From assembly GCA_030390025.1 (NCBI GenBank), contig CM059453.1, forward strand, positions 7,254,001-7,318,000: a stretch of 64,000 bases of DNA. Reading direction: 5' to 3'. Below are positions 2,161 to 62,161 of the stretch, piece after piece. The stretch's first letter is position 1; every line of letters starts with the position of its first letter. Both the position numbers and the translations under genes were made by a program. The DNA is from Squalus acanthias (lineage: Eukaryota). Under the pieces are notes generated by a model. That model had not been told where the DNA came from and did no database searches. It was given only the letters and a program-made list of their open reading frames with translations.

Positions 2161-2254
2161 CTTTTTATCTTCAGCGTGAGGACGACTGCAATTAGAGTAA
2201 CAAGCCCGATGGTTCCTCCTCCTATTATGAGGACGATTGTCCTGGACAATATTC
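2161..2254 (-). CDS. Siglec-like gene A1, transmembrane exon (GILSRTIVLIIGGGTIGLVTLIAVVLTLKIK)
   Basis: ttttag acceptor, 94 nt, AG|GTAGGT donor, hydrophobic helix followed by a basic stop-transfer stretch. By homology to A2 the tail exons lie left of position 1. Confidence 0.85.
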
Positions 2255-20800: not shown

Positions 20801-20804
20801 AAAG

Positions 20805-23800: not shown

Positions 23801-25072
23801 CTTGACTAATCTACTGGATTTTTTTGAGGATTTAACTGGGAAAATAGATAAGGGAGAACCAGTAGATGTGTTGTATTTGGACTTTCAAAAGGCTTTCGAT
23901 AAGGTCCCGCAGAAGAGATTAGCGTGTAAAGATAAGGCACATGGGATTGGGGGCAATGTATTGATTTGGATACAGCACTGATTGGCGGACAGAAAGCAGA
24001 GAGTATGAATTAATGGGTCTTTTTCCGAGTGGCAGGCAGTGACTAGTGGGGTACCGCAGGGATTGGTCCTTGGACCCCAGCTATTTACAATATATATTAA
24101 TGATCTAGATAAGTGAACTAAAAGTAATATCTCCAAGTTTGCAGATGACACAAAGCTGGGTGGACGTGTGTGCGGCGAGGAGGATACCGAGAAACTCCAG
24201 GATGATTTGGACAGGTTGGGTGAGTGGGCAGAAGCGTGGTAGATGCAATATAACGTGGATAAATGCGAGGTTATCCACTTTGGTGTCAAAAACAGAAAGG
24301 CAGACTATTATCTGAATGGCAACAGATTGGGAGAAGGGGAAGTGCATCGAGACCTGGGTGTCCTTGTGCACCAGTCGCTGAAGGTAAGCATGCACGTGCA
24401 GCAGGGGGTGAAGAAGGCAAATGGTATGTTGGCCTTCATATGAAAGGGTTTGAGTACAGGGGCAAGGATGTCCTGCTGCAGTTGTATAGGGCCTTAGTGA
24501 GACCACACCTTGAGTACTGTGTGCAGTTTTGGTCGCCTTATCTGAGGAAGGATGTTCTTGCCATGGAAGGAGTTCAGCGAAGATTCACAAGGCTGATACC
24601 TGGGATGGCAGGAATGACATATGAGGAGAGATTGGGTCGATTGGCCTTATACTCGCTGGAGTATAGAAGAATGAGAGGGGATCTCATCGAAACATATAAA
24701 ACTCTGACAGGTCTTGACAAACTAGATGCAGGAAGAATGTTCCCGATGGTCGGAGAGTCCAGAACCAGGGGTCATAATCTAAGGATAACGGGTAAGCCAT
24801 TTAGGAGAGAAACGAGGAAGAATTTCTTCACCCAGAGAGTGCTGACCTGTGGAATTCTCTACCACAGAAGGTAGTTGAGGCGAAGTCATTAAATATATTC
24901 AAGGATGAGTTAGATATATTTCTTAAAGCAAAAGGAATCAAGGGATATGGGGAGAAAGCAGGTACAGGGTACTGAATTTGGATGATCAGCCATGATCTCA
25001 TCGAACGGCGGAGCAGGCTCGAGGGGCCGAATGGCCTACTCCTGCTCCTATCTTCTATGAATCTATGAATCT
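20805..25072 (+). mobile_element. Near-full-length CR1-clade LINE, degenerate
   Basis: Duplicated ~73-bp 5' motif. ORF1 remnants (zinc finger plus esterase), APE endonuclease and RT remnants (YLDFQKAFDKVP, GVPQG, FADD) with many stops. 3' (tctatgaa)n tail. Confidence 0.92.
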
Positions 25073-25074
25073 AA

Positions 25075-25410
25075 AAAAAGATGGTACAGATACAGCAAGA
25101 ACACGTGGTACCGATCCAATAAGAACACGTGGTAGAGATAAACAAAGAACACGTGGTACAGATACACCAAGAACACGTGGTACAGATACACCAAGGACAC
25201 GTGGTACAGATACAGAAATAACACGTGATACAGATACACCAAGAACACGTGGTTCGGATCCAATAAGAACAGGTGGTTCAGATACACAAAGAGCACGTGG
25301 TACAGATACACCAAGGACACGAGTTACAGATCGAATAAGAACACGTGGTACAGATAAACAAAGAACACGTGATAGAGATGCACAAAGAACACGTGGTACA
25401 AAGATACCAA
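25075..25410. repeat. 24-bp minisatellite, right part
   Basis: About 14 units of the same motif, separated from the left part by the LINE. Confidence 0.9.
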
Positions 25411-26136
25411 AAACGTTTTCTGCTTCGATTTAAACAGAATCAGTGTTGGGAAACACAACACACGGGGATAGAGAGACTCACTCTGGTCTCTCTTACCTTT
25501 GGTTTCTGTTTGTTAGCGACATGTAAATACAGTTATTATGGCGTGTTCGGATGGCTGTGCAGTATCTTTCTACGGCCAGTAGGTATCGGGGTGGGTCCAC
25601 TGTATTGAATCCCGTGACACACTCTCAGTGCACGGGAGATCTAATGCTATTTACAACTAACTGACTGTTCTTGTCAGTTCCCAATGTATCCTTCCGTTTC
25701 AGAACACGTTGGAGTAGTTTTTGTCTTGGACGGAATCTCAAAGACGGAACGGCCGCCTCTCATACGCCCCACTTACTATTTAATTCCCTGCGATGCGATA
25801 AAGCCAGTTTTACGCTACCGCCTGCGTTTAATTTCTAATCTGGCTAGCGCAGGGTTATAGTACTTTCAATTGTTCTCTTCGATCCAGTGGACATTGTCAC
25901 CTCAAGCGCACTGACTGCCAGTGAGCTCCGTACTCACAGTTGTTCCTGATCCTGGATTTACCCAGCCAAGATACGGGCACAGTGAACAGGTGGGAAGGGG
26001 TCACACGGCAGTGATCAGGAATTGGATCACTGGCTGTTTCATTCCATTCAAAGTCGATGTCATTCATAGTGCGGCTACTGCCAGCCTGGCACAGACCTGC
26101 GATTGAAGCATGGTAGCAGATTATAATTGGCGCAGA

Positions 26137-26301: not shown

Positions 26302-26375
26302 TATAATTGGCGCAGACTTCACTCTCAAACCGCATGTGTTAGCGCTGATATAAACCAGCGAGGCAATTAGGATAT

Positions 26376-27075
26376 AATTAACCCGAACCCCTCGATTAGA
26401 TTCAAGCCTGCAACTCACTCCCGGGTATCTGTTATTCTATATATAAACCCCCCGAACCCCTCGATTAGATTCCAGCCTGTAACTCACTCCCGGGTATTCG
26501 TTATTCTTTTTATAAACCCCTAAACCCCTCGATTAGATTCCAGCCTGTAACTCAATCCCGGGTACCTGTTATTCTATATATAAACCCCCTGAACCCGTCG
26601 ATTCGATTCCAGCCTGTAACTCACTCCCAGGTATCTGTTAATCTATATGTCAACCCCCCGACCCCCTCCATTAGATTCCAGCCCGTAACTCACTTCCGGG
26701 ATTCTGTTATTCTGCATATAAAGTACCCGACATCCTCGATTAGATTCCAGCCTGTAACTCACCCCCGAGTTTCTGTAATTCTGTATATAAACCACCCGCA
26801 CCCCTCGATTAGATTCTAGTCTGTAACTCATTCCCCACTGTCGGTTATTCTATAAATAAACCCTCCCCCCGAACTCCTTGATTGGATTCCAGCCTGTCAC
26901 CTACTTCCGGCTATCTGTTATTCTATATACAAACCTCACTGAAACCCCTCGATTAAAGTTCGGCCTGTAACACACTCCCAGTTATCTGTTATTCTATATA
27001 TAACGCCCCGTAACACTCCATTAGATTCCAGCCTGTAACTCACTCCCAGGTATCTGTTATTCTACATATAAAACA
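26376..27075. repeat. ~68-69-bp tandem satellite
   Basis: About 10 units of ataaaccccccgaacccctcgattagattccagcctgtaactcactcccgggtatctgttattctat. Confidence 0.9.
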
Positions 27076-27323
27076 CCGAAAACAATATATCAGAATCCAA
27101 TCGCGAAGTCATTGTTCGATAAGTGATAATGTACACATAAGCCATTCGAACCTCCGCGTTAGATTTCAGCCTATGACCTATATTAAGTTGTGCTTTTCCC
27201 CATTTATAAACAGTGCAAACTGCTAGATTGAATCCATTAGCCAATATTTTTTTCTGGTATGCGGTCTGCCTTCAACTCTTTTCGATTTCACTGGAATACA
27301 AATTGGAGATAATCTTCAGGAAC

Positions 27324-30300
27324 TGCCAGAGAGCTCACTTATTTAAATCTCAGCAGTATAAATAAGGGAGACTAGAGTGCAGTTTGTCACGGAGTGCAGA
27401 TTTGGAATAGAGTGCTAAGCTACGAGTTTGGTGAGTGAGGGAGTAACTCTTAAAAGTTAATCTCTTATTTTTATAAATTCGAGTCTTGTGTGCTTGCAAT
27501 TAGCATTTAAATTTACTGTTTCAAGTTTTAAGTTTCTTCCAGGCTTGGGCAGGGCTAAGCAAGCTCTGTGCTGGAGAGCAGGTGATAGTAATTAATTAAT
27601 TAACTGGTCTAATTGGGTTCTGTTACTGCCAGAGAACTCACTTATTTAAATCTCAGCAGTATAAATCAGGGAGACTAGAGTGCAGTTTGTCACGGAGTGC
27701 AGATTTGGAATAGAGTGCTAAGCTGCGAGTTTGGTGAGTGAGGGAGTAACTCTTAAGGTTAATCTCTTATTTTTATAAATTCTAGTCTTGTGTGCTTGCA
27801 ATTAGCATTTAAATTTACTGTTTCAAGTTTTAAGTTTCTTCCAGGCTTGGGCAGGGCTAAGCAAGCTCTGTGCTGGAGAGCAGGTGATAGTAATTAATTA
27901 ATTAACTGGTCTAATTGCGTTCTGTCACTGACAGAGAGCTCACTTATTTAAATCTCAGCAGTATAAATAAGGGAGACTTGAGTGCAGTTTGTCACGGAGT
28001 GCAGATTTGGAAAAAAGTGCTAAGCTGCGAGTTTGGTGAGTGAGGGAGTTCGGGGAGGGAAGTGTGCCTTCCTTTTTCCATCTTTGTCAGCTTCCTGGTG
28101 CGGCGGCGGACCTGTGTGAGGCGAGGCTATGCAAAGGGTTTAAAAGGCTCCAGAGACCAGGTAAGGCGGGACCAGTCTCCGAACACGGAGGGAGGGAGAG
28201 AGGTAAAACTAATCGAGGTGTGACGTCACCAGAAAGCAGGTAAGTAATTGGTTGGTGAGTATTTCTCTCTTTTTAAACTTAAACTCTGTGGATTGTAGTT
28301 AATAAGGCCTTTCTGGTGCAGACTGACTGTTGGTAAACCATTTAACTGGTGTAATTTAGAGGGATTGATTTAATTTAAATCCAATTAATTAGAGGGGATA
28401 CTAGCATCTATAATCGGTAAGAGAGTGTCCATAACTAACAGTATTTTTTTTAAAATTAATTACATAGAATGGAGCAGGTCATGTGTTGCTGTTGCGAGAT
28501 GTGGGAGCCGGTGGACCCCATTGAGGCTCACGGTGATTACATCTGTGACAAGTGTCTGCTGCTAAAGGAACTCCAGCTCCGTATTGATGAGCTGGCGTCT
28601 GAGCTTCAGACACTGCGACACATCAGGGTGGGGGAGAAGTACCTGGACTTTGTGTTTCAGGAGGTGGTCACACCTATGAAGTTAATTAATTCAGATGTAG
28701 CCCATGGTCAGGGACATGACGGTGTGACTACCAGTGAGGCAGTTACGGGGATCCAGGAGGTAGTGTTGGAGGAGCCGCAGCACTTGCTCTTGTCCAACAG
28801 GTTCGATGTTCTTACTCCCTGTTGGGACAGGAGCAGGGACTGAAGGGAGGATGAGCAACCTGGTCAAAGCACCGTGGAACGGGGGGCCATTAAAGAGGTG
28901 GGAGTAAATAGAAATGTTGTAGTGGTAGGGGATAGTATTATTAGGGGGATAGTAAGAGTTCTCTGCAGCCGAGAGCGAGAGTCCCGTAGGCTGTGTTGCC
29001 TGCCCGGTGCCAGGGTTAAGGACATCTCCTCTGGGCTGGAAAGAAACTTGCAGTGGGAGGGGGTGGATCCAGTTGTCGTAGTCCATGTTGGTACAAACGA
29101 CGTAGATAGGACAAGGAAGCAGGTTCTGTTAAAGGAGTATGAGCAGCTAGGGGTCAAATTAAAAAACAGAACTTCAAGGGTATTAATCTCTGGATTATTA
29201 CCTGAGCCACGAGCGAATTTGGCTAGGACAAATAAAATTAGAGAGTTAAATGAGTGGCTCAAAGACTGGTGTGGGAGAAATGGGTTTTGCTTCCTGGGAC
29301 ACTGGCACCAGTATTGGGGCAGGAGGGAGCTGTTCCGTTGGGACGGGCTTCACTTGGCCAGTGCTGGGACTAGAGTCCTGGCGGATCATATAACTAGGGC
29401 TGTAGAGAGGGCTTTAAACTAACTAGTGGGGGGGGAGTTTCCTAGAGAGCAAATAATAAAAATGACAACAGAGAAGGTCATAGACTTAGGTATCAGTGGG
29501 GAAATTAAAAACCAGAGTGTGTCAGGAAGGGGCAGAAGGTATGGAGTAAAAGGTAAAGTAATAAAAAGGGCAAAAGCAGGAACTAAGTGTCACAAAACAT
29601 ACTTGAAAGTTCTCTATCTGAATGCACGTAGCATTCGTAACAAAATAGATGAGTTAATGGCACAAATAACTACATATGAGTATGATCTTGTGGCCATTAC
29701 AGAAACATGGCTGCAGGGTGACAATGCCTGGGAATTAAACATACCAGGTTATTTAACGATCAGGAAGGACAGGCAGGAAGGAAGGGGAGGTGGGGTGGCT
29801 ATGTTAATAAAGGAAGGAATCACTGTAATACAGAGAAATGATATTGGGTCAAAATATCAGGATAATGAAACAGTTTGGGTGGAGATAAGGAATAATAAGG
29901 GGAAAAAAACACTAGTGGGCATAGTCTATAGGCCTCCGAACAGTTGCAACTCTGTTGGACGGAGTATCAATCAGGAAATAGTTGAGGCTTGTAATAAGGG
30001 AACATCTTTAATTATGGGGGATTTTAACTATCATATTAATTGGACAAATCAAATTGGGCAGGGCTGCCTTGAAGATGAGTTCATTGAGTGTATTAGGGAT
30101 GGGTTTCTTGAGCAGTATGTAACTGAAATGACCAAGGGGCAAGCAACCTTAGATCTGGTCCTGTGTAACGAGACATGATTAATTAAAAATGTCCTAGTAA
30201 AGGATCCCCTTGGAATGAGTGACCATAACATGGTTGAATTCCATATTCAATTAGAGGGTGAGAAGGTTGGATCTCAAACAAGCGTGCTAAGCTCCAATAA

Positions 30301-32645
30301 AGGAGACTATGAAGGTATGCGAGCAGAATTGAGTAGAGTGGATTGGGAAAATAGATTAAAGGGTAAAACGATACATGATCAGTGGTGTACATTTAAGGAG
30401 TTATTTTACAACTTCCAGAAAATGTATATTCCACTGAGAAGAAAAGGGTGTAAAAGAAAAGACAGTCATCCATGGCTAAGTAAAGAAATTAAGGATAATA
30501 TTCAACTAAAAACAAGGGCTTATAAGGTAGCAAAATCTAGTGGGAGGATAGAGGATTTGGAAAACTTTAAAAGACAGCAAAAAATAACAAAAAGATTGAT
30601 TAAGAAAGGGAAGATAGATTATGAAAGTAAATTAGCAAAAAATATAAAAACAGATAGTAAGAGTTTTTATAGTTATATAAAAAGAAAAAGGGTGGCTAAA
30701 GTAAATGTTGGTCCATAGAGGATGAGACCGGGAAATTAATGGTGGGAAATATGGAGATGGCAAATACACTGAATGAATATTTTGTATCAGTCTTTACAGT
30801 AGAGGACACTAAGAATATCCCAACACTGGACAAACAGGGGGCTATAGGGGGGGAGGAGCTAAACACGATCAAAATCAGTAAGGAAGTGGTACTTGGTAAA
30901 ATAATGGGACTCAAGGTGGATAAATCACCTGGACCTGATGGCTTACATCCGAGGGTCCTGAGGGAAGTGGCGGTAGGGATTGTGGATGCATTGGTAATAA
31001 TTTTCCAAAACTCCCTGGACTCAGCAAAGATCCCGGCAGACTGGAAAACTGCTAATGTAACACCCTTATTTAAAAAGGGCAGTAGACAGAAGGCTGGAAA
31101 CTATAGACCGGTTAGCCTAACATCTGTGGTAGGTAAAATTTTGGAGTCCATTATTAAGGAGACAGTAACGGGACATTTGGATAATCATAATTTAATAGGA
31201 CAAAGTCAGCATGGTTTTATGAAGGGGAAGTCATGTTTGACAAATTTGCTGGTGTTCTTTGAGGAAGTAACACACAGGGTGGATAAAGGGGAACCAGTGG
31301 ATGTGGTGTATTTAGACTTCCAAAAGGCATTTGACAAGGTGCCACACAAAATATTATTGCTTAAGATAAAAAATCAAGGGATTGAGGGTAATATTCTGGC
31401 ATGGATAGAGGATTGGCTATCTAACAGAAGGCAGAGAGTTGGGATAAATGGTTCATTCTCAGACTGGCAAACAGTAACTAGTGGTGTTCCGCAGGGGTCA
31501 GTGCTGGGTCCCCAACTCTTTACAATCTATATTAACGATTTGGAGGAGGGGACCGAGAGTAACATATCAAAGATTGCAGATGATATTAAGATGGGAGGGA
31601 AAGTAGTGAGTGAGGAGGACATTAAAAAGCTGCAAGGGGACATAGACAGGCTAAGTAAGTGGGCAGAGATTTGGCAGATGGAATACAATACTGCAAAGTG
31701 TGAGGTTTTGCACTTTGGCAGGAAAAATAGTAGAGCAAGTTATTATCTAAATGGAAAGAAACTGGGAAGTACTGAAGTACAAAGGGATCTGGGGGTCCTG
31801 GTGCACGAAACTCAAAAGTTTATTATGCAGGTGCAGCAAGTGATTAAGAAGGCCAATGGAATGTTGGTTTTCATTGCTAAGGGGATAGAATATAAAAATA
31901 GGGAGGTATTGCTTCAGTTGTACAAGGTATTGGTGAGACCGCACCTGGAATACTGCATGCAGTTTTGATGTCCATACTTAAGAAAAGACATACCTGCTCT
32001 CGAGTCAGTAGAAAGAAGGTTCACTCGGTTAATCCCGGGGATGAGGGGATGGACATATCAGGAGAGGTTGGGTATATTGGGACTGTACTCATTGGAGTTC
32101 AGAAGAATGAGAGGCGATCTTATTGAAACATATAAGATTGTGAAGGGGTTGGATCGGGTGGATGCGGGGAGGATGTTCCCGATGATGGGTGAAACTAGAA
32201 CTAGGGGGCATAGTCTTAGAATAAGGGGCTGCTCTTTCAAAACTGAGATGAGAAGGAACTATTTCACTCAGAGGGTGTTAGGTCCATGGAATATGCTGCC
32301 CCAAAAAGCTGTAGAAGCTACATCATTACATAAATTTAAAACAGAAATAGACAGTTTCCTAGAAGTAAAGGGAATTAAGGGTTACGGGGAGCGGGCAGGA
32401 ATTTGGACATGAGTCTAGGTTCGGATCGGTCATGGCCCTGTGGGTAGCGTAGCGGGCCCAGGGGCCGTGTAGGCCGATCCTGCTCCTATTTCGTGTGTCC
32501 AATTCTGTTAGGTTCAGGAGATGGTTCTGTGATAGTAGATTGGAGGTGAGGATCAGATCAGCCATTATCTTATTGAATGGCGGAGCAGGCTCGAGGGGCC
32601 AATTGGCCTACTCCTGCTCCTATTTCTTATGTTCTTATGTTCTAA
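27324..32645 (+). mobile_element. Near-full-length, relatively young CR1-clade LINE
   Basis: 5'UTR with ~302-bp tandem monomers. ORF1 28469-29422 has one stop, a CxxC finger and SGNH/GDSL esterase motifs (GDS..GTND..DGLH). ORF2 29426-32412 (EN+RT) has two in-frame stops and one frameshift near 30716. (ttcttatg)n tail. Possible short TSD caggaac. Confidence 0.95.
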
Positions 32646-38280: not shown

Positions 38281-38448
38281 TCAGTTCTGTTTAATTGCTG
38301 CATATTCGCAGGTCTCCTCATTTTGAATATATTGATCATGTTTGCGGAAGTTGGAGAAATTGAAGGTCGCGTACACAATCTCGTCATTCTGAGCTGGTTT
38401 AGTCGATTTTGCGGTGCCACGACCAGCCGCTGTAAACTGATGGTCCCT
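38281..38448 (-). CDS. Siglec-like gene A2, terminal cytoplasmic exon (…EIVYATFNF…TCEYAAIKQN*)
   Basis: ttccgttacag acceptor, 168 nt open to TGA. ITIM-like plus ITSM-like Tyr motifs as in Siglec tails. Same length as, and homologous to, B1 exon 16450-16617. Confidence 0.8.
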   Translation of the reverse strand, partial: RDHQFTAAGRGTAKSTKPAQNDEIVYATFNFSNFRKHDQYIQNEETCEYAAIKQN

Positions 38449-38779
38449 CTGTAACGGAAGGTATTTGTGTTAGATGTGGAGTTATTGCAGATATGGAGCA
38501 GAATGCGTTGGGAGTGTACTGTCTGCAACAGAACAAATCTCACTATTTTATCCCTGGTAAGTTGTCTGAAGGCGCTGATTCATGAAATGAGCGTTGTTAA
38601 GTCTTGATGCAAGAAATAAAGAACTGGCAATTGTATATCCGGACGAATCGATAAGGCTTGGGTGTGCGACTAAATTGGGAACCTGTTTCAAACAGCACAG
38701 GTACTACGGGCGGAAATGTCGCTTTCTGTGCTGTAAATATCTGATTCTAAGGCGTAGAAATAGCATATTTGATCCGGGC

Positions 38780-39410
38780 TTTTATAAATTGAGGTACAGA
38801 TTATGAAAACAAGTTAGATACGCTGAACATTTATACATCAGTGGTTATGCCTCGCCTGGAATATTGCGTCCAATTCTTGCATAACTCTGTCAAAAGGATG
38901 TCAATGCTTTAGAGAGCGTACAGTGCAAATTTAATAGAATAGAGTAGAAATGAGAGAATGCACTTAAACGGACAGTCTAGGGAAACTGGAGTTGTTCCCC
39001 TTTGTGTAGAGAATGATAAAAGGGAGATTAGATATTGTTGATCCAAATTCTGCAGAATTTTGATACAGTAAATAAGGAGAGATTGATTCCACTGGCATGA
39101 GTTTTGCTAACCAGATAACACAGATTGAAGATATTTGGGTCAAGAACAAAATGAGAGGTGAAAAGATTATTCTTTTCAACTCAGCGAGTTGTTGTGATCT
39201 GGAATGCACTTCTGAAAGGGCGGTGGCAGCAGATTCAATCGTGACTTTCAAAAGGAAATTGGATATATGCGTGAACATGAAAAAACATCCAATCAGGGCT
39301 TAGGGTAAAAAGCACTTTCGTGTGACTAATTATTTAGCTCTTTCAAACAGCCAGCACAGGCACCGTGGGCTGAATGGCCACCTTCTGGGGTGTATGATTC
39401 TATGATTATT
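38780..39410 (+). mobile_element. Degenerate CR1 3' fragment
   Basis: PRLEYCVQF-like sequence and a 3' tail ending tatgattctatgatt. Confidence 0.7.
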
Positions 39411-40192
39411 AAGACCGAAGCGCTGCTATGCAAATAATAACTTTTGAATTCCTGCCGCTGTTGTTGGAAAAATGCAGCAACCAGTTAATGGGATGAATGG
39501 CGAATTAATCAGTATTAGCTGGTGTTCATTGAGGGAGAAATGTTAGCAAGGGCACTGGGAAAACTTGCATTCGTCCCCACAGTAGGACCATATGATCGTT
39601 TCCCTCCATAGCAAGAAACAAACGGGGCCTCGTTTAATATCTAATCGAAAGGACGGGTCTTCCGGCAATGCTGCACACCTTCAGTGCTGAAATGAAGTTT
39701 CAGCCCAGATTATAGGTTCAAATGCTGGAGCGAAGGTTGAAGCCACAACCTTCTTTCCCAAAGGTGGGGAACATGGGGCCCACATCGGCAGCAAGATGCA
39801 ACTCGGAGATACACATAAACCTGAGGAATGGCAAGGATTAGCCCCTCTTGGATCGCTGACACTTTGTGATCTTGTTGGGCATTTAACTGATCAGACCGAA
39901 TTGGAAGAGCTAAGACGACATTGGAAGCACATTCTTACATGAAGAATTTGTTTTTTGACGGAACGCCAAGGTGAGAAATACTCCCTAATTGGATTTATTA
40001 GGTAACTACATGTAGAGTCTGTAGCTATGTTGCACTTTTGCGACGTGAGGCGGTTAATCCACCCTTAATTGTAAACAAGTTTCTGATACTCCAGTTTATC
40101 TGTTGGGTATTGCCCGTTATGAGTCATTGCTGGTGGAAAGCACACCAAACATCCTTCAATTGTCAGCCCAACATGGCATCACTTCCGTCAGC

Positions 40193-40274
40193 CTTTTCTG
40201 CATACTGCACCCGACTGTAAATCACCAAATCATCGTGTGCTTCGGAGACACGTGCAGCTTCTCCGTGTTTCTTC
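40193..40274 (-). CDS. Siglec-like gene A2, cytoplasmic exon 1 with ITIM (RKKHGEAARVSEAHDDLVIYSRVQYAEK)
   Basis: Acceptor ctaattattcag|G matches the phase-2 TM donor. VIYSRV at 40225-40208. Donor uncertain (AAG|GCTGAC); read-through would stop at 40165-40163. Confidence 0.7.
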
Positions 40275-40379
40275 CTGAATAATTAGAAATACAAACGAGG
40301 CACTTCTCTTAATTAACTGGAATGTTTAGTGAAAGCGCACTGCGCCTGCGCGATGAAGGACGTCAGGACGTCAGGAAAG

Positions 40380-42310
40380 ACTTAAGAATGCAAGAAATAA
40401 GAAATAGAAACAGGATTCGGCCATACGGCCCCGCGAGACTTTTCCGGCATTCAATAAGATCATGGCTGATCTTCGACCTCAACTTCACTTACCCGTCGGA
40501 CCTCCATATCACTTGATTCCCCGAGAGTCCAAAAATCTATCTATCTCAGCCATGAATATACTCAAAGACTCAGCATTCACAGCCCTCTGGGGCAGAGAAT
40601 TCCAAAGATTCACAACCCTCTGAGCGAATAATTTCCTCCTCATCTCGGTCTTAATGGCCTACCCCTTATACTGGGACTATGCCCCCTATTTCTAGACACT
40701 CCAGACAGGAGAAACAACCTGTCAGCGTCTAGACTATCAATCCCCTTCAGAATCTTGTATGTTTCAAAGAGATCACCTCTGATTCTTCTAAACTCCAGAT
40801 AATCTAGGCCCATTCTTCACAATCTCTCATCATAGGACAGCACTCTCATCCCAGGAATCAACCGAGTGAACCTTCTTTGCACCGCCTCCATGGCAAGTAA
40901 AATCTTCCTTAGATAAGGAGAACAAAACTGTGCAGAGTACTCCAGGTGTGGTCTCACCAAGGCACTGTACAATTTTAGCATGTCTTCGTTACTCTTATAT
41001 TCCAAACCCCTTTCAATAAAGGCCAACGTATCATTGCCTTTCTTATTGCTTGCTGTATCTGTATGCTAGCTTTCTGTGTTACTTGAACGAGGACAGCCAA
41101 TTATCTCTGAATACCAACATTTCAAAGTTTTACACTATTTAAAAAAAAATCTGTTTTGTTATTCATCCTACCAAAGTGAATAACCTCACATTTCCCTACA
41201 TTATTCTCCATCTGCCATCTTACAGACCACTCACTGGGACAGAAATTCGGGTCTCCACCGGTGAGCATGCGCTGTCTACTCAGCCGCAGACCCAACGAAA
41301 GTGCAGGTTTCACGCAAGTTCTGCGCATGCTTTGGAAACCGATCTTCCGTTCCCTCGAATGAAGGATTTTTGAGGTCAAAAGCGTGCGCCGGCGAGGCAA
41401 CGCGCACGCAGCGAACTTCCGTTTTTTAACAGGTTTTGAAGTGTGGCTCAGTCCCTGGCAGCTGCGTGGCGCAAGGCCTGCTTTTAACAAGGTAAGTGTT
41501 GCATTATGTAAAATATAAAAAAAATTTCCACAGGTTTATCTTTATTATATAATTTAAAGAAAGATACGTTTATTTTTAGCCCCGTTAAAAACTATAAATC
41601 ATTTTTCAAAAATTTCAATTTTTGTTTAAAATAGTTAATTTATGTAACTTATAGTTATTTTTAAAATTATACTTTTATTTTCTTAATTAATTTGAAGTTT
41701 TAGTTCGGTTTTGGGGGGTGATCTCTATTCATAGAGTTGACATGTCTTCCTGTCAAATGTATGAATGGTGATTCGCTGCTCCGATTGGCTCTCCATGGCC
41801 CACGTGATCCCAGGGGATGGTTCGAAATTTCCGCGCCCCTGGGAAAAGCAAGCACTGCACACCGGCAGCTGCAGGAGGCCCAGGATCGGAATTCCACGCG
41901 GGCCCACAGCACAACGGCAGGCTTGTTAGGTCAGTGAACGTCGGGGGCTTTCATCCACGGGAAGCCTCCGACCCGAATTTCTGGCCCTTTTAGTCTATCT
42001 ATATCCCTTAGCAGACTCTTTGTGTTCTCCTCACAGCTTACTGTCCCATCTAGCGTTGAATCATCCAAAAAAATGGCTACATTACACTCGGTCCCTTCAT
42101 CGAGATCATTAATATAGACTGCAAATAGCTGAGGCCCCAACACTGATCATTACGGCACCCCACTAGTTGCAGCCTGCCAAACTAAAAAAAGATCCGTTTA
42201 TAACTACTCTCTGTTTTCTGTCTTCTAACCAATCCTCTATCCATGCTACAATATTACCCCCAACCCCATGAGCACTAATCTTATGTAATAACCTTTTATA
42301 AGGCATCTTG
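40380..42310 (-). mobile_element. CR1 fragment interrupted by a MITE
   Basis: RT C-terminal pieces (LVRPHLEY, GPQLFAVYINDL) are continuous across 41236-41987. Paralog at 452-790. Confidence 0.8.
41236..41987. mobile_element. Non-autonomous TIR element (MITE, PIF/Harbinger-like termini)
   Basis: Terminal inverted repeats gggacagaaattcgggtc / gacccgaatttctggccc. Partial paralog at 1-450. Confidence 0.7.
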
Positions 42311-43668
42311 TGTCTTTTACTTCTCCCGATTAGCACTGACCAGATCCGCAAGCCAATTATTTTCAATTTCCACCAGCCAACGTTTCAAAAGGGAACATTT
42401 TACTTTATCAATGATAGGTGTTAATGATACGGTGCTGATTGCTCTAGGTGCAAGTTGCTTGTGATAAATAACGGTCAGTGGGAGGTTTATTAATGATTTC
42501 AACCTGGGAAAATCGCAGATGCAAGTGTTTCAATATGTCAACGCAGTCCTTTCTATTATTAGGTAGACCACTTCAACACATTGGAGTTAGAAATTAGGAA
42601 TACATCAATATTCCTCATCAATCTTTTTGCGATCATTGATTAGTTGATATTATTAAGCATGGAATTGCCTTCTTTAAATATATCATGGCACATGAAGGGT
42701 TAAAAGTTAGCACCACTCACAAGAGTGTCCTGGCTCATGCTGTTGCGCTTGTGTCGAAACATTGGCAGTTGAATGGCGACGTCATAGATTTCAATTATAA
42801 AAATACTGTCCGATTGGTTGAAGGATAAATTTGATTGGCAGCAGATTGAAAACCTAACTGGGTGTTATTTGAATTCAGTTGGAGCCGGTCACAATTCTGA
42901 AGGTAACTGTCAGCCTGTATATTAAAACCAGCGAGTCTGTCTAGAGCTTTCAAAGAGAGCAAGTCAGCCAAATAGCTGAAAACACTGGTAAATATAAAAT
43001 AACAAGCAAAACAAAAATAACTGCTAATATCATACTTTAGCACATCAGTCACACCCAATTTTGAAATATAAAGTTGTATTCCTTGAGTCAAACAAACTTA
43101 AAAACTACTGTAAAAATATGTGCCACTTTACTTTTACTATTTGCTTGTTGTTTTACTGTTTGCTGGACTAGCTTGATTGATACAACTTCAGTGTCAATCT
43201 GGTGTAGTGTTATGCTGAGAGTCAGTCATGACAAGGAGGCTCGTGTGAGGCTGTCCATAAAAGCAGCAACAGAAATAAACTGAAAAGGATTGTATGCCCA
43301 TTCTTTGAGCATGCTGAAAAGTTTATCCAGATTGCGCGGGAATTGTAAACACACGCTGGCACAAAGAGTGCCAGCGATTAGAAGTCAAAAAATGTCCACT
43401 TTAAACAGAAGGAAACAGACCCCAAGAACGTAATAGGAAGAATGTACAGACAGTCTGATTCAAGCAGCCACTAATATTACTCTGTATTTGATGGTTGGAG
43501 ATGCGAGCGACTGGTCAGGGATGATTGACCTTCCTACTTTACGCACCAGTTTAGGCTGATGCACACTGTACTCACGGGAGTTTAATTTAAAGTAGATTTT
43601 GATACACGGACGTTCTGATGCAGGTTTCCTTTGAAACTTAATTCCATATAATTAATAATCACACCTAC

Positions 43669-43762
43669 CTTTTTATCTTCAGCGTGAGAACGACTGCAAT
43701 TAGAATAACAAGCCCAATGGTTACTCCTCCTCTTATGAGGACGATTGTCCTGGAGAATATTC
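43669..43762 (-). CDS. Siglec-like gene A2, transmembrane exon (GIFSRTIVLIRGGVTIGLVILIAVVLTLKIK)
   Basis: 94 nt, ends in phase 2. Arg codon AGA at 43733-43731 lies within the hydrophobic segment. Confidence 0.85.
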
Positions 43763-49131: not shown

Positions 49132-49512
49132 CTAAAACAGAAAGAAATACGTCAGTACGCAGAGTCCGACGTATATTAGTAGACCCGGCCGAAGCGATAT
49201 CGATGCTGAATTCGTATGTACCCTCATCACTCTTCCTGATATTCATTAGCAGGAGGGAACATTGTTTCTTTGCAATGTTGCCCGTGAACTCAGCTCTTCC
49301 ACCATAGTCATAATGCTGCACGTATGGATATTTAGAATCATATATAATGGAGAAGCTGGGGTTACCAGAACCAGGTCCCCTCTTTAACCACGTCACACCT
49401 GCGATTCCCCGATAGTCTGGACAATCAAACGTACACCGGATCTCTGCACATGAACCGGCCACCGCCGACACAACATTTGGCATCAGCAGAGCGAATTTAG
49501 CACTAAAAACAA
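49132..49512 (-). CDS. Siglec-like gene A2, V-set Ig exon
   Basis: 381 nt, phase 1-1, open. GSCAEIRCTF...KQCSL...DEGTYEFSIDI. Confidence 0.9.
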
Positions 49513-50150: not shown

Positions 50151-50193
50151 CTTCTGTCAACATTATGAGAGGCAGCAGCACGGAACTCCTCAT
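50151..50193 (-). CDS. Siglec-like gene A2, signal-peptide exon (MRSSVLLPLIMLTE)
   Basis: ATG at 50193, 43 nt, phase-1 donor. Confidence 0.8.
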
Positions 50194-52415: not shown

Positions 52416-54989
52416 TTGTTACTATGAGCATTTAGCTCAACCTGCTGACCAAGCTAAACAAAAACACATTTTACAGCTATTTCAGATTGCCCCTGGGACG
52501 GTTGTCAAGGAGATATTCTGAGAAGATAACACGAAGAAATCCTGAAAATTGAGCCAGAATACTTGGGGTAATTGAAAGAGCAGATTCTAGACTGAATTGA
52601 AATATCAGACAAAAGCGAACAGATCCGAGTGTGAAGTGTATGCTCTCGGAGTTATACCTGTAAACATATATCAAGTCAGGCAATTAATCGCCTGCTTTCA
52701 ACATGGATTTTTCCCTGGTAATTTAAACACTCCAGCATAGGAAGAGGAGCCGCTAGTTGTTTCGCAAAAAAACTCAGTTGCATTAAATGATTCAACATGT
52801 GCTACCGGTGCTGAGCTCTGTACAGTGGATTGTATAATTACATTTCCTTATTTTGGTTTCTGATGAACTTAACATATAGGAAAGCAATCTTAATACCGTT
52901 ATTTCCAATTTACACAGGGGACAAAACCATGGCTGAAATTCAGTGTCAGTTTGCAGAGTCTTCGTGTCCTCCTAACAGCTTTCTGTCCCACCTAGCTTTG
53001 CAACGTCAGCAAACTTGGCATACATTTCCTTTCATATTAGGCACGGGATTTCTGCGTTCGTGTTGGTGTTGCTGCAGTAGGGAGATTCCCTCTAGCATCT
53101 CTGTGTGTTGGTGACGTTTTACAGTTACAAAGAATTACATAGAATGGGCAGCACAGAAGCAGGCCATTGGGGCCAGTTGTCTATGTCGGTGTTTATGCAC
53201 CATAAGCAACATCTCCCTCCCCAATTCATCTAATTCATTCAGCATAACTATCTATTCCTGTCTCCCTCATATGTTGTTCCATCTTCTCCTTGAATGCAAC
53301 TATGCTATTCGCCTCGTTTACTCCTAGCAGTAGCGAGTTCCACATTCTGCCGTAAAGCTTTTTAAACAAAATTTTCCTTAAAATATTCCTGGATATTTTT
53401 AAGAGTATTAAATTGTTAAAGTTTGATTAATACAGCTGAAAATGTGATTATCACAAGAAAGAACAATTTTGAATCACGGTGTCAATCCACCAACTATGAG
53501 TAACCCGATTATAATTGGCTGAAAATTACTTAAAAAAATATAGTTAAAACTATGTTCTAGTTAGATTAGGATACAGTAGTCAATTCCTTAGGATTATTTA
53601 TTTTCAGTCAATACCTTTCAAAATGTACGTATTAGTGCTTAAGAAAATCCAGCTTAATTTTGGGCCTGCAAACGAGCACAATTAGAGGAAACTATCAAAG
53701 GAGATTAACTCATCCTGGGGGCGTGGCCACTAGTTTGGATGGGCCTGCTTCTTTATGTTTAATTTATTTACTCGTTCCTGGGATGAGGGGGTCGCTGCCA
53801 AGGCCGGATGTATTGCCCAACCCGAATTGCCCTTGAGAAGGTCGTGGTGACCCACCTTCTTGAACTGCTGCAGCCCGTGTGGTGAAGGTACTCCCAGAGT
53901 GCTGACTTTTTCGCAGTGGTTTGGTACAACTGAGTGGCTTGCTAGGCCTTTTCAGAGGCCAGGAAAGAGTCAACCACATTGCTGTCGGTCTGGAGTCACA
54001 TAGAGGCCAGACCAGGTGAGGACGGCAGATTTCCTTCCCGAAAGGACATCAGTGAACCAGATGGGATTTTACAACAATCTGGTAGTGGCATGTTCACCAT
54101 TACTGATACTAGCTTTTTAATTCCAGATGTATTTAATGCACTGAATATAAATTCCCCAGCTGCCCAGTTCTAGCGCAATGCTTTTAAAACTACGCCGATA
54201 TCAGGGGAATTGCATCGAAAAGTACCGCATTCGAGCGGATACTCCAGGCCCTTGTATTTACATATCGTCATTCACAAACACAGTACATCCAAATGCGCTT
54301 TACAACTAATTAAGTACTTTTGAAGTATTGTAACGTTGTAATCGCAGCGGCCATTTTAGCGTACAACACGTTCCCCCTAAATCATCAATGTGATATCGAC
54401 CAGATAATCTGTTTTGGTGCGGCCCAGGACACCGGGGAGAGCGACACTCCCAGTATCCGAAACAGTGGCAAGGGATCTTTTCAGGCACCAAAGAAGCATC
54501 AGTTTATCGTCTCATTTGCAAGATAGCTTCTGCGCAAGTGCAACACTACCTCAGTTGTGCACTGGGAATGTCAATCTGGATTTTGCGCTCAAGGCTCTGG
54601 AGTGGGTCTTGTAACCCATGACATCTTGATTCAGATGCAATATATTGTGAAGATGGATGCTCTGAGATCTCAATTCGAATTACAGTTTAAACGTGGAGCT
54701 GAAAACACAACAGGTCCTTCAAAGATTCAGCTTACACTATAAGCGGATGTTGCCTGACCGCAAATACATTTATTCTGGTCCAATTGTCCAGAATGGTTCA
54801 AACCGAAGAACGTCATAGATGGCAGTGGGCTGTGTTCTGCAGTAACCACAACTACAGAGGCGCTGAATAGAACCGAGCACTTCACACCTCCCCTCTTTTG
54901 CTATACTGGCACACGGTGTAAACAAACCCACCTCGGTGCAGCCGCAACGAGTGAAAAACTGTGCATGCTCCATATGAACAGTCAGCGTT

Positions 54990-57548
54990 AAACCCAAATT
55001 GAGCACCGAATTTCACCACACATCATTTCAAACTTCGGCTTCAAAGCAAATTGGTCTTGTGTGGAGCTTCATTGAGCAGGGGGCATTGCACCAACCGCCA
55101 CTCTGTGATTGACCAGACATTATGGCTTATTTTATTGTTATTGCAAACTGAGACCTGGGTCTGAACACACATCCCTAAAGAAGTCAGTAAAACCAGGCTG
55201 TGACTGGGTCTGAACACACATCCCTAAACTAGTCAGTAAAACCAGGCTGAGACCTGGGTCTGAACACACATCCCTAAACTAGTCAGTGAAGCCAAGCTGA
55301 GACCTGGGTCTGAACACACATCCCTAAACTAGTCAGTAAAACCCAACTGCGACCTTGGTCTGAATAGAAGAACCAAACAAACTCGGCCCTGGATTTGAAC
55401 CCCCTTCACACCGCCAAAAAAATGGTTGTCCCAATGGATGATTTTAATCTCTTAGTTGTTTAATAAAAATAAACTGGGCACTGGAACCGCACTCACATCC
55501 CTGAAGTGCTCTGTAAAATCAGACTGGACCCTGGATCTTACCGCAAATTCCATCTCCCTTTCTCAGACTTTCTCTGTCAGAATGTCTCTCACACATTTTG
55601 ACTTCTCTCTCTCTCTTTTTTCGCTAGAAAACGAGAAGGCTGAGCTGTGGCCTAATAGAGGACTTGAAAATCACGATAGGGTTTTTGAGGGTAGATGTAG
55701 AGAAGGTATCCCTATTTGTGGGGAGTCCAAAACTCGGGGTCATATATCTATGATTATCACCAATAAATCCAGTCGAGATTCAGTAGAAGCTTCACTACCC
55801 AGCGTGGTGAAAATGTGAAACTTGCTACCGCAGTGAGTGGTTGAGGCGAATAACATAGATACATTTAAGGGGAAGCTAGACAGGTACATGTGGGAGAAAT
55901 ATAGAGAAGGATATGCTGATAGGGTTAGAAGAGGTAAGGTGGAATAAGGCTCATTAGGAGCATAAACATACTGGCCTTTGTTTATATGTAATTATGTAAA
56001 TGTTATTCACTCTCTGGCTCTCTCTCTCTCTCTCTCTCTCTCTTCCTCCCTCATTATCTGTCAATTAAGGGTATTAAAAGAGAATAAAAAAGGTGAGCAA
56101 CTGCGATTTCAAACGGGTATAAAAAGGGGGTTTAAAAGTGATCTAATAGAGGTTTAAAACGGAGATCTAAGGCGGATCATGAAGGGGGTGAACAGGGGCT
56201 GTAGCACTGAGGTTAAGTACTGGTTTTATTAAGGGGTTGACAGTAGTATTTAAAAGGGGGGTTTAAAGAAGTGTAATTACAAAGAGGGAAGGCGGGAGGA
56301 TTCTGTGGTCTCACCGGAAGTGACATCAATCGCAGACATGACAGACAACAGCGAATGGGCTCTCATTGGATCTGTCATCATTTCATCAGTGAATATGAAA
56401 TCCTACACTAGTGATTAGTAAGAAGATGAATATATTAAAAGAGGAATGGCCATTGGTCCAAAGGACGCTGCATCTTGACCGTGTGAAATTCACCCTCATT
56501 GATTCTCATTCACTTATTTTTATGCTTGAGGGAGTGGAATAATCACGGGGCACTCACGAGAAGGCAACGTCCCCTTTCCCAAATTTCGAAACCAAGAGAT
56601 ATTTCAGGTAAACTGTTATCGCACTGGACTGAATGTTCAATTTAGTTCGTATGCATAATATAAGGCTTAAATGGTCACACTCAGAGCTCCACACGCAGTT
56701 TCCCTCTCGGACAATTATCATCCTCTGCACCATTTATACATTCCTCAGTTCTTATATTGTATTTCCATTCACTGCCTGATGTTAGTTTATATGTTCTACT
56801 GGCCTTGTACTAACAGGTTTGTAAGCGAGTGATACCCATCCTGTAATATCGGCCTCTGTTGTCTCGTCAGGACTTCTTCTTTCTCGCCTTACTAAACAAT
56901 TTGATTATCTTCCGTTTTCAATTCTGATTAATTACATACCGAAAATGTCCACTGACATCTTCACCCCACAGACAGCGACTGACCTGTTATGCCTTGTCAA
57001 CAGTTCCTGGTGTTCTTCAATGGATGTGTGCCCGGGACGTTCAAGAGTCCTGAGTAATGAGGCTGCTGTGACACTCTCCTTGTGTGCTTCAGAAAATAAT
57101 GGAGAATTAAATATCTTTGCTGTGTTGAGAAGTCCAATTAGTATGAATAGAATGTGCAAAATATTGTAATGGGTGAGCGCAAGAAAAATAAACAATTTGC
57201 TCTGGAAAGTGTAACGGATTTCAGATTAGAATTGTGAAAATGGGAAAGAGTGAGTTGTGCAAACTGCACGAGGCTCATCCGAGGTGCTTTACTGACATCT
57301 ATAAGGTAAGGTAGCGATTGATTACTAACCTCTGCATGGTAGCAGTGATACGGTCCTCTTATCTTCCAAAGAATCTGAACTAATTCTGCTTCATAATCTG
57401 ATTCCAAATGCGCCCAGCTTGAAGCTGGACTGTGTGCGAATGTGGTTCCCGATTGTATCCAGGATTTGATCCCACTGATCAAGTTGCAGGGATTTGTTCC
57501 CGTAGATAAAAATATCCACGTTGTTTCCAGCAGCATTGACACTCCAAT
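54990..57548 (-). pseudogene. Candidate multi-exon relic with SMAD MH2-like similarity
   Basis: Phase-1 exons 57548-57330 (one TGA), 57119-56940 (open, 180 nt) and a terminal exon from 55102 (frameshifted; intact paralog at 10046-9931). The family call is by eye only. Confidence 0.35.
55149..55365. repeat. 50-bp tandem repeat (~4.4 units)
   Basis: Paralog of 10093-10260. Confidence 0.9.
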
Positions 57549-57979
57549 CTGAAAGCTCACGTCACATTTCACAGTTCTAGCATTAAAGTCAGAATCTTCA
57601 TAAACCCGTCATTGTAGCAACTCGGATCTCAATGAGTTAATTTCAGCAGATTTCACCTCGCTGGACTGTTAATATAAACAGCTGAAGTCACTTCTAAAAA
57701 TGGCAGTTTACGCTCTTGAAACTTTTTTCAGAGAAACATTAAACATTTGACATTTCAGATACGTGTTGTGCCCCCGAACTACTGAAGGTGATCAACCCAC
57801 ACGTCTGCAGACAACGGCTACAGGACTAACCACAGCTTCACACTTCAAACACTCGCAGTTCAAGGGCTGATAAATAGCTCAGTGTGTGGGAGTTGAGAGT
57901 CGAGGCGTCTAAAGTTGATGCAGAGGCTATTTTAGATATTGCAATCTAAAGTGCCACTGCCTGTCCTGTAACTGTGCAG

Positions 57980-58646
57980 ATGATGAGGGGGCTGGGTGCA
58001 TCTCTGCTCAGGGTTATTTTGCAGTGGGTGAGCCTCATATATCTTGCAACAGCGGGCCACACACTGATGTAAACTGTTATATTTGAAGAGTCCCAGATTT
58101 CCAACAGTTTAGATCACCAACATTTCAGGAGTGCCGAAAGCTGTGTGAGCTACCACGGTTCCCAATGATTGTTGGGTGGCGAACAGCTGACCTCCTAATA
58201 CTCTGATTCGATTCATTCCGAACTCCAATATATTAGCGGCGAACCGAAAACAGAAACTACATCACTTATATCTGAGATAAAAACTATTTATGTCATTTTG
58301 ACATCGTCAACCGCCTCCAGTCATGAAGAATATTAAATGTATTTCCAATCCGATATTTAGCGAAGGTAAAAAATATTCATAGGATATGTGGTTAAAGGGA
58401 GTCCTAATCCTGGAACCTCACGGGTCTCGATTATCTATGATTCCAGGGATTCAGACAACGTACCCTTAAATTATAGCGGGCGAGCTGAGTTCACCGGCGA
58501 ATTTATAAAGAAACAATGTTCCTTACGGTTAAAGGACAACGGCAAGCGCGATCAAGGTGATTATTATTTCATATTGAAGATCATCACTGCCTTGAATACT
58601 ACAGAAGGATATTCTTCCGGATCTAAAGTCACACTTTTTATTTTAT
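57980..58646 (+). pseudogene. Siglec-like pseudogene fragment B2
   Basis: Leader-like exon 57980-58027 and the 3' part of the V exon (58385-58646). A ~475-bp deletion relative to B1 removes the acceptor and V N-terminus. Downstream exons are replaced by the A3 inversion. Confidence 0.8.
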
Positions 58647-58809
58647 GTAAGTTTTTTGAATTGTTCAATTTTAGTTTATCTTCCATCTCCTCAGTGCCAT
58701 TTAACTTGAGCTTAAAGTGTAAAGATATCTTGTTACTCTTAGCCCAAGTCACAGGCTACAGCGGCAGGGCTGGTACACTGCATAATACCCATGAGTGTGT
58801 TGTAGAATA

Positions 58810-60048
58810 GAATCATAGAATCATAGAATCTTACAGCACAGAAGGAGGCCAGTCGGCCAACGACGCCTGTGCCGGCTCTTTAAAAGAGCTATAAAATTTA
58901 GTCCCACTCCCCATATTTTTCCACATAACTCTGTAAATCAACCTTTTTTTTTTAGGACAGCTCCAACTGTTTTTCAAAAATTCCCATTGAATCGGATTCC
59001 ACCATCCTTTCAGCTGAAGCATTCTAAATCTTATCAACCCTCTAGGTGAAGACATTTCTCCTCATTTCCCAACGAGTTCTTCGTCGAATTGGTTTAAATC
59101 TGAGACCTTTGGTTACCAACACACTTGCCAGAGGATATGGTTTCTCCTTAATAATTCTGTCAACACCCCTCACTTTTGAATAGCACTATAAGGTCTCCCG
59201 TTATCCTTATCTTCTATAAGGAGAACAATCCCAGCTTCTCCAATCTCTCCACGTATGTGAACGTCTTCATCCCTGGTATTATCCTGGCAAACTTCTTCTA
59301 TACCTCCTCCAGGGCCTTGAACTGCTTCCTTAAGTGTAGTGCCGCGAATTGTACACAAAACTCCAACTGACGCCAAACCAGAGATTTGTAAAACTTGAAC
59401 ATGACTTCCTTGTTTTTGTATTCAATGCCCCTATGTAAAAAGAACCGAATTATCCTATATGCTTTCTTGTTAAACACCTTGTCAATTTACACTGCCATCT
59501 TCAAAGATTTGTGAATATGTACCCCATGTCCCTCTGTTCTTGCAGCTAACCTCAAAATGGGACTATTTAGATAATATTGCCTCTCCATACATTTCACCCA
59601 ACGTGCATTACTTCACACTTATCCGCAGCAAATTGCATCTGCCATGTGCCTGCCCATTTTACCAATCTGTCGATGTACTCCTGAAGTTTGCTACAATCGT
59701 GCTCACTATATAACACGTTGCCATTTTTGTATCACGCTCAAACTTCGAAACGTTACTCCCAATACCAAAGTCTAGGTCATTTATATAGAACAAGATTAGC
59801 AATGGTCCTAAGATCGACCCCCTGGGGGATGCCACAGCAAACTTCGCTCCTGTCAGAAAAACAGCCGTTCACCACTTCACTCTGCCTCCTATCCCTCAGC
59901 CAATTTCGTACTCACGTTGCCACTGTCCCTTAAATAAAATGTGCTGCTATTCTCCGAATAGATCTGTTATGAAGTACTTCATCCAATGTCTTTTTAACGT
60001 CCATATATACAACAGCTACTGCACTACCTTCATCAAACCTCTCTATTA
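58810..60048 (-). mobile_element. CR1 LINE fragment (duplicate of 12060-13300)
   Basis: Colinear with 12060-13300. Confidence 0.85.
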
Positions 60049-60415: not shown

Positions 60416-61093
60416 ATCTTCAAAATTTCTGAACTTGAGTGTGAATGTAAAGAGTTAAATATTTAGAAGAAAGGCTGTTTACCACTGCGTCAAACGGTTT
60501 ACTGTCAAACAGCTCCTATCTGAAACGTCACAGATGCATATTGGAGCGCTCCTTGAAGAAGGTGACGAAACCACACGTCTACAGACTGCAGCAAGCTAAC
60601 TAACTGTAGTGACCCCTCTACAACATTCAGCTCGTATTAGCTGCCAGAAAGCTGAAGATGTGTGAAATGTGAGGCAGAGGCGTCTGCAAGCGTGGGCGTT
60701 GCCATTCTGACACAGACGCCAATATATCAATATCATAAATAACAGTACATTTGGTGTTTGTGTGAGTTTGTACGAGAGAGGGAGATATGTTGTTTCTGTA
60801 TTAAGTATTCTTTTGCAACGGTTCAATATACCATAACATCATATTCTGTATCAGGCGGTCACACGGAGCCCATGTACAAGATGTGCTAGCTGCCGACCTC
60901 ACCAACGGAGCTGATTGAGTGAGCACTGTTCCAACACATCGGTAGCAACCGAATCGGACTTCCCCGACAGTCTGATGCTGATTAGCAAAGAAATCCAAGA
61001 TGTGACTGGAAAGAAGAATGCTGAAATTTGAATGGTGTTAATTGTGAATTGATTTCTTCATTTTGCGAGTGAAATCGACAGCATTTTCCAGCC

Positions 61094-61136
61094 ATGAGCA
61101 GTTGCGTGCTGCTGCCTCTCATAATGTTGACAGAAG
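61094..61136 (+). CDS. Siglec-like gene A3, signal-peptide exon (MSSCVLLPLIMLTE)
   Basis: ATG at 61094, donor AG|GTATAT. Confidence 0.8.
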
Positions 61137-61774: not shown

Positions 61775-62161
61775 TTGTTTTTAGTGCTGCATCCTCTGTG
61801 AAGATACCAAAAGTTGTGTCGGCGGTGGCCGGTTCATGTGCAGAGATCCGGTGTACGTTTGATTTTGATTATCCAGACTATCGGGGAATCGTTGATATGA
61901 CGTGGTTAAAGAGGGAACCTGGTCTTGGTAAGACTGGCTTCTCCATTATCTATGATCCTAAAGATCCACACAGGCAGCATAATAACTACCGTGGAAGAGC
62001 TGAGTTCAAGTGTAACATTGAAAAGAAACAATGTTCCCTCCTGCTAACGGCTATCAGGAGGAGTGATCAGGGTAAATACCAACTCAGAATCGAGATCGCT
62101 TCGGCCATATATATTAATAGACCTCGGCCTCTGCATGCTGAGGTATTTCTTTCTGTTTTAG
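61775..62161 (+). CDS. Siglec-like gene A3, V-set Ig exon retaining the essential Arg
   Basis: 387 nt, phase 1-1, with a 2-aa insertion. DQGKYQLRIEI. Confidence 0.9.

Follow-up and report, generated by a model that had tools for sequence, protein, structure and literature searches.

The window analysed here, 64,000 nucleotides of the Squalus acanthias assembly GCA_030390025.1 (contig CM059453.1, positions 7,254,001 to 7,318,000 of the forward strand), contains two related genes for Siglec-like immunoglobulin (Ig) receptors on its minus strand, A1 and A2, which form an 89% duplicate in a self-comparison of the window; this alignment stops before the A1 tail. A2, the subject of this report, has six exons from the signal peptide to the transmembrane (TM) segment: a signal-peptide exon (50151..50193, with the ATG at 50193; found in every copy of the family whose fetched upstream DNA extends there), a Siglec-like V-set exon (49132..49512), a second (C1, 46632..46943), third (C2, 45787..46044) and fourth (C3, 44572..44859) Ig exon, and a TM exon (43669..43762). 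These exons join in a single open frame with GT-AG splice sites throughout, and the 1,376 bases from the start to the end of the TM exon are free of stops, frameshifts and bad splice sites. The cytoplasmic tail is encoded by two further minus-strand exons of matching phase, T1 (40187..40274) and T2 (38281..38448).

The A2 TM exon translates as IFSRTIVLIRGGVTIGLVILIAVVLTLKIK and carries an Arg codon, AGA, at 43731..43733, 18 residues before the first cytoplasmic Lys, at the position where the A1 TM exon (2161..2254, minus strand, without Arg) reads ATA (Ile). This one-base difference, reported by an earlier note on this DNA, was read directly in both TM exons, and the Arg falls within the predicted membrane segment as that note had supposed: the top-scoring hydrophobic windows of 19, 21 and 23 residues all contain it, and in those of 21 and 23 it stands sixth, as judged by hydropathy only and not by a dedicated TM predictor. 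The tail of A1, collected from the genome to the left of the window (locus L002), encodes three Tyr motifs (VIYSRV, IAYATV and CEYAAI) behind a T1 donor of GTAAGT.

Three Tyr motifs are also present in the letters of the A2 tail, namely the ITIM (immunoreceptor tyrosine-based inhibitory motif) VIYSRV in T1 (40225-40208) and IVYATF (38379-38362) and CEYAAI (38310-38293) in T2, and the earlier note had proposed a dual-signal receptor that combines all three with the Arg. All of the parts exist, but a single mRNA is unlikely to carry all three motifs because the A2 T1 donor (40181..40186, minus strand) reads GAC|GGAAGT, with GG in place of GT. The donor is GT in 35 of the 40 other copies of the family (GTAAGT in 33, GTCAGT in 1, GTGATG in 1), the rest having TTAAGT (2) or ATAAGT (3), and GG occurs in none of them. 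Read-through of T1 gives the tail RKKHGEAARVSEAHDDLVIYSRVQYAEKADGSDAMLG, which ends in EKADGSDAMLG at a stop at 40163..40165 and keeps one ITIM (VIYSRV), and skipping of T1 moves T2 into a Tyr-free frame; T2 is likely not read in frame from the full T1. As for cryptic donors, the stretch within 375 bases of the start of T1 contains 11 GT sites with a match at 5 or more of the 9 consensus positions. Two of these, 40225 (TTG|GTGATT) and 40210, lie in the frame of T2; their use would preserve both distal motifs and destroy the first, and they match at only 5-6 of the 9 positions; one of the others leads to no motif and eight to the first motif only, and none of the 11 sites yields all three. Judged from the sequence, the likeliest A2 product would be a receptor with a TM Arg and one ITIM. 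The second A2 motif ends in Phe, compared with Val in every other copy whose spliced tail reaches that motif, a change consistent with relaxed constraint on T2. An automatic annotation would string the A2 exons together or overlook the donor change, so that A2 would be misclassified.

A search of the genome with the TM exon returned 40 loci out of 43 candidates, to which the locus just right of the window (L040) was added. The resulting 41 copies (32 at C30:6.0-7.7 Mb, 4 at C30:0.2-0.32 Mb and 5 on other contigs) are a lower bound for one subfamily only, and some near-twins among them may be duplicated haplotypes. A TM Arg occupies codon 10 (four copies) or codon 11 (twelve copies) in 16 of the 41: the codon is AGA at codon 10 in A2, L020, L028 and L029, CGA at codon 11 in L005 and L006, and AGA at codon 11 in L010 and L032-L040. 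Arg was reached by three codon changes among these 16 copies, and a tree built from the intron flanks, with the TM exon left out, requires five Arg changes, all forced by starred branches. A single Arg origin was rejected for all 16 (approximately unbiased test, p-AU 9e-61) and for the four codon-10 copies, and L006, the sister of A2, has a different Arg codon from A2. L016 and L025 were counted as non-Arg throughout; their TM exons have a 6-base deletion, a Glu and a deeper Arg (IIGLEAIRLVIL), their tails are intact or near-intact, and both have C2 stops.

Both distal motifs are lost in 14/16 Arg copies and in 1/25 others (Fisher’s exact test, 5e-8) and, when eight copies with V frameshifts were dropped to leave 33 with an open V exon, in 10/11 Arg copies and 1/22 others (1e-6); kin are counted repeatedly in both tests. 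The lesions differ between lineages: the donor in A2 (inferred), a stop in L006, a 17-base T2 deletion in L032-L040, three of which also have a T1 stop, and, in L020, L028 and L029, generally decayed tail exons 11-12 kb downstream. L036 (C30:6232780-6242779), with an open ectodomain, a TM Arg and a 42-residue tail without ITIM, is the cleanest predicted activating member. L005 (C30:245988-255987) has a TM Arg (CGA), three Tyr motifs and GT-AG tail sites, together with a C2 stop that would need skipping, and is by its letters a real candidate for a dual receptor. A single base at the key codon separates A1 from A2, with intermediate and end states supplied by L005, A2 and L036; the order "Arg first, tail loss later" is therefore testable. 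Among the first 45 proteins inspected from other sharks (gene models, not transcripts), a TM Arg without any Tyr motif is seen in P0016 (basking shark) and P0017, and most close relatives have an uncharged TM segment and two or three motifs.

Members with an uncharged TM segment and an ITIM tail, and members with a charged TM segment and a short tail, are both present in the shark family, and their ligand-binding exons do not follow this division. By their TM flanks the nine copies L032-L040 group in one clade, and they are scattered in the V tree, where holding them together gave a p-AU of 7e-74. The V exons of L032 and L033 are 99.2-99.5% identical to that of the non-Arg copy L016 (TM exons, 77%), and the V exon of L036 is 97.1% identical to that of the non-Arg copy L031 (TM exons, 82%). 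A near-identical V exon shared with a partner of opposite type is found in these two cases, more weakly between A2 and the non-Arg copy L009 (94.5%; the nearest V exon to A2, that of L006, is at 95.8%), and not between A2 and A1, whose V domains are 74% identical. The suggestion of an incipient pair with A1 does not survive this comparison: A1 was ruled out as the A2 partner by its V identity, nearer V exons exist, and a nine-copy clade with Arg and short tails is already in place. Simple unequal crossing-over between tandem copies would account for the V sharing too. The ratio of nonsynonymous to synonymous differences (pN/pS) is 1.39 for the V exon (24 copies) and 0.59 for C3 (38 copies), as crude pairwise sums with no formal test.

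A candidate adaptor is probably encoded in the same genome, which has an FcR-gamma TM exon with its Asp (L082, contig C1222; E 1e-11 to the FcR-gamma entry in PDB) and a CD3 zeta TM exon (L081, contig C5). The A2 Arg stands 18 residues from the first cytoplasmic Lys, the Arg of the other class 17, and the FcR-gamma Asp 16 from its first Arg, a geometry that allows the A2 Arg and the FcR-gamma Asp to pair and from which binding may be predicted. In the available part of PMC1440944, an N-terminal Arg is tied to FcR-gamma and a central Lys to DAP12, and because of this DAP12 is, by analogy, probably the less likely A2 adaptor of the two. CD89 is described as requiring both FcR-gamma Asp residues and as sensitive to a one-residue shift of its Arg (PMC13107469, available part).

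In the mechanism we propose, intron retention or T1 skipping would strip the two distal Tyr motifs from A2, and the read-through stop would lie in what becomes the last exon, where a stop codon should escape nonsense-mediated decay. The TM Arg would then meet the Asp pair of the FcR-gamma dimer, and ligand binding would trigger signalling through the immunoreceptor tyrosine-based activation motifs of the adaptor. A2 would be a young, independent repeat of a switch made earlier by the nine-copy clade L032-L040, in a family of paired receptors whose inhibitory and activating copies would have ligand-binding exons in common. We give about even weight to the statement that A2 is a shark Siglec-like receptor with a membrane Arg, a likely short tail (at most one ITIM in the main product), a predicted FcR-gamma partner and an activating function. 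Of the earlier picture of an inhibitory receptor part-way to becoming activating, this keeps the direction of change, as the tail is also being lost, Arg and tail loss occur together again in other copies of the family, and the genome contains an FcR-gamma TM exon with Asp; it gives up the three motifs and the pairing with A1.

Several observations weigh against this reading of A2. The NxxR motif is absent, A2 having VLIR, and in all 16 Arg copies the residue three positions ahead of the Arg is something other than Asn; the horn shark model P0001 reads NICR. That model has two motifs, P0003 combines a TM Lys with three, and L005 has its TM Arg with a full tail. The last motif alone is lost in four non-Arg copies (L022, L023, L025 and L031). 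Conversion could lower the count of Arg origins, and the TM exons of L005 and L006 are identical. The link between Arg and tail loss is not significant on independent events: among five independent pairs, 2-3 go the same way and none the opposite way (sign test, p 0.25-0.5), and 3/4 full tail losses fall on Arg branches (p 0.05-0.11), with A2 scored as tail "lost" by inference from its donor. Four clean Ig exons are found in only 2/16 Arg copies (A2 and L036) and in 14/25 others, C2 is broken or absent in 12/16 Arg and 8/25 other copies (p 0.011), and five Arg copies (L010, L020, L028, L029 and L034) have V frameshifts. Most of the broken C2 exons retain their splice sites.

In a first alternative, A2 would be an inhibitory gene in early decay, its Arg and donor changes being neutral events in a cluster with rapid turnover, and the Arg copies would be tailless as mostly pseudogenes. 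We regard this as rather unlikely. It draws on the ectodomain lesions of 14/16 Arg copies, the V frameshifts, a TM pN/pS of 1.22 in L032-L040, the independent-event tests and the fact that GGA and ATA are each one base from Arg. The open frame of A2 itself, with sound splice sites from the start to the end of the TM exon, stands in its way, as does the position of the changes: basic residues arose five times at codons 10-11, and none arose at Gly codons 12-13, which are just as mutable, a bias with p of about 0.002-0.005 for five origins and 0.06 for three, in a post hoc test. V frameshifts are not clearly enriched (5/16 Arg and 3/25 other copies, p 0.23), and high loss of activating partners is known in any case (SIGLEC16P; PMC5701461, available part). 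The C2 lesions may also be skipped, since C2-less gene models occur in other sharks (P0001, P0002 and P0005). C2, intact in A2, is broken or absent in 20/41 copies. Many separate lesions are responsible, C1 and C3 are affected far less often, and C2 may be an optional exon on its way out. Every Ig exon is phase-symmetric, C2 is missing altogether from two copies, and C2 skipping could in principle rescue the broken copies.

A second alternative, which we consider distinctly unlikely, is that A2 is bifunctional in the manner of KIR2DL4 or chicken CHIR-AB, with the Arg recruiting FcR-gamma and the ITIM or the distal motifs recruiting SHP phosphatases. Read-through retains VIYSRV, the cryptic donors at 40225 and 40210 keep IVYATF and CEYAAI in frame, L005, P0001 and P0003 each have two or three motifs alongside a basic residue in the TM segment, and bifunctional CHIRs have been described (PMC1458963, available part). 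Against these must be set the poor match of both cryptic donors, the failure of any GT route to give three motifs, the drift of the second motif to Phe, and the loss of both distal motifs in most Arg copies.

The alleles on which the activating reading depends were sought in public data, where neither the A2 Arg base nor its donor base was confirmed and only the Ile base was seen at 43732. All depth at that position in four DNA contig sets (X1, X2, X4 and X6, with 3, 3, 2 and 1 contigs, respectively) is the Ile base; two listed contigs end at 40184, next to the donor base, and none listed bridges it. Such contigs show presence and not absence, and A2 seems not to be in them, because its other private sites are also missing there and the best public run held 0.21 of the A2 words. 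A2 behaves as a real, distinct copy, with 18 private exon positions in 1,635 bases (11-27 in four other single copies). An assembly error at the Arg base, at the donor base or at both is very improbable: the depth of nine Ile contigs, the unbridged donor and several near-twin copies in a repeat-rich cluster that may be hard to assemble speak for it, and the normal number of private positions, by which private bases are to be expected, the apparent absence of A2 from those contigs and the same Arg codon in L020, L028 and L029 speak against it.

The exon chain proposed for A2 is supported at the level of the family and not for A2 splicing itself. No A2 transcript was seen among the listed public RNA data, which counts against the activating reading as well. 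In contigs guessed to be RNA from another, related organism (X9), the joints of TM with T1 and of V with C1 coincide with the A2 boundaries, and one contig ends at the T2 acceptor (38448). At 82%, these sets give paralogue-level joints only, all in X9, the other three (X14-X16) barely covering the exons, and no T1-T2 joint was found among the joints listed from X9 and X14-X16.

The order of A2, with an N-terminal V-set, further Ig domains, a TM segment and a tail, is that of the Siglecs. Its V exon matches the Pfam V-set and Ig_CD22 families (PF07686 and PF24518), with sialoadhesin and MAG as best PDB matches (E 4e-10 to 2e-9). The V domain of Siglecs has a CxxIxC pattern near its start and a cysteine pair on the B and E strands, and CAEIRC and KQCSL of A2 align with CLLIPC and KVCNL of sialoadhesin. 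An Arg on the F strand is essential for sialic acid binding in Siglecs; there, sialoadhesin reads DSGTYNFRFEI and A2 DEGTYEFSIDI, with Ser in place of Arg, and among the copies with a readable V exon only L035, L037 and L040 have this Arg. A2 is therefore Siglec-like, falling outside the Siglecs by the binding criterion. Its closest relatives among database proteins are shark models automatically named Siglec-8/12/13-like or MAG-like; one of them, P0001, shares 50% identity with the A2 V exon. Seven RefSeq/UniRef models from sharks (P0001-P0003, P0005 and P0007-P0009) share the domain order, TM segment and three-motif tail of the A2 family, and carry automatic names only ("sialic acid-binding Ig-like lectin 8/12/13", "myelin-associated glycoprotein-like"); the literature searched gave no account of activating members.

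Other members surround A1 and A2. A third copy spans 60417-64000 of the window on the plus strand and continues in L040; its V exon (61777..62160, plus strand) belongs to a gene that exits the window and has a TM Arg, an 11-residue tail, a C2 frameshift and the F-strand Arg that it shares with L035 and L037. A more distant Siglec-like subfamily is represented by two decayed copies (9926-16608 and 54983-60048, plus strand), which lie head to head with A1 and A2; their V exons are about 43-46% identical to that of A2, and their later exons have stops and frameshifts. The near-identical pairs L011/L012, L022/L023 and L032/L033 lie about 0.77-0.82 Mb apart on C30 and reflect either a recent block duplication or a duplicated assembly haplotype. 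Further Ig_CD22-type exons are found on C30, C3542, C17 and other contigs. Two such matches, L091 and L092 (C3542, near 1.15-1.17 Mb), are in open frames of 1,558 and 1,083 codons, which suggests intron-poor multi-Ig genes in a second cluster. The window also holds long retrotransposon frames of the long interspersed nuclear element type (21970-24962 and 28460-32409, plus strand) and tandem repeats near 20556-20961, 25072-25414 and 26372-27099.

More broadly, and more tentatively than for A2 itself, we suggest that sharks run a large Siglec-like paired system that is mostly sialic-acid-blind, in which activating members have appeared repeatedly by a one-base TM Arg change and tail loss, with FcR-gamma and not DAP12 as the adaptor, and that one genome holds the series from inhibitory A1 through L005, Arg-bearing with its tail complete, and then A2 and L006, whose tails were broken only lately, to the old activating clade L032-L040, which draws V exons from inhibitory copies. 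If true, the inhibitory-to-activating switch worked in cartilaginous fishes on a Siglec scaffold, by an adaptor route other than that of the activating Siglecs of mammals, and it did so without the old NxxR module. Good descriptions of paired receptors exist for mammals, chicken, Xenopus and bony fish, and MDIR appears to be an unrelated skate family. No Siglec-like paired family in sharks was described in the literature searched, most subscription journals lying outside its scope, and a whale shark paper mentions Siglec once, in general terms. What is already known is the kind of paired receptor, as in chicken CHIR; likely new are the Siglec scaffold, the shark lineage, a probable FcR-gamma route that dispenses with NxxR, and the presence of successive stages within a single cluster.

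Among known systems, the receptors that couple to FcR-gamma through an N-terminal TM Arg (FcalphaRI/CD89, LILRA2, PIR-A, GPVI, NKp46, OSCAR and Xenopus XFL; available parts of PMC1440944, PMC2413239, PMC6557307 and PMC13107469) are, like A2, type I proteins with the Arg near the outer TM end. They share an old NxxR TM module, described for TM segments of the LILRA/GPVI/NKp46/FcalphaRI type in the available parts of PMC2413239 and PMC6557307, whereas VLIR in A2 arose by a point change in an inhibitory TM exon. The paired CD33-related Siglecs, as far as the available text of PMC5701461 (Siglec-11/16) and PMC13358205 (Siglec-5/14) extends, resemble the shark family in their V-set and Ig domains, their tail with an ITIM and an ITIM-like motif, an activating partner that shares its V exon by exchange (the SIGLEC11/16 pattern being like that of L032-L040), and frequent null activating copies. 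Siglec-14 signals via DAP12 (PMC13358205, same part). The outer Arg of A2, of the FcR-gamma type, sets it apart from Siglec-14, and the sialic-acid Arg is absent in A2 and in all but three copies with a readable V exon. The DAP12 link of Siglec-14 uses a mid-membrane basic residue. The chicken CHIR cluster is alike in being a large set of inhibitory, activating, bifunctional and pseudogene copies, in the gain of a TM Arg more than once at shifted positions, in tails lost by independent lesions and in block duplications. CHIRs are C2 receptors of the leukocyte receptor complex type with one or two domains, whereas the shark family has a Siglec-like V domain and two or three further Ig domains and, unlike CHIR, belongs to cartilaginous fish.

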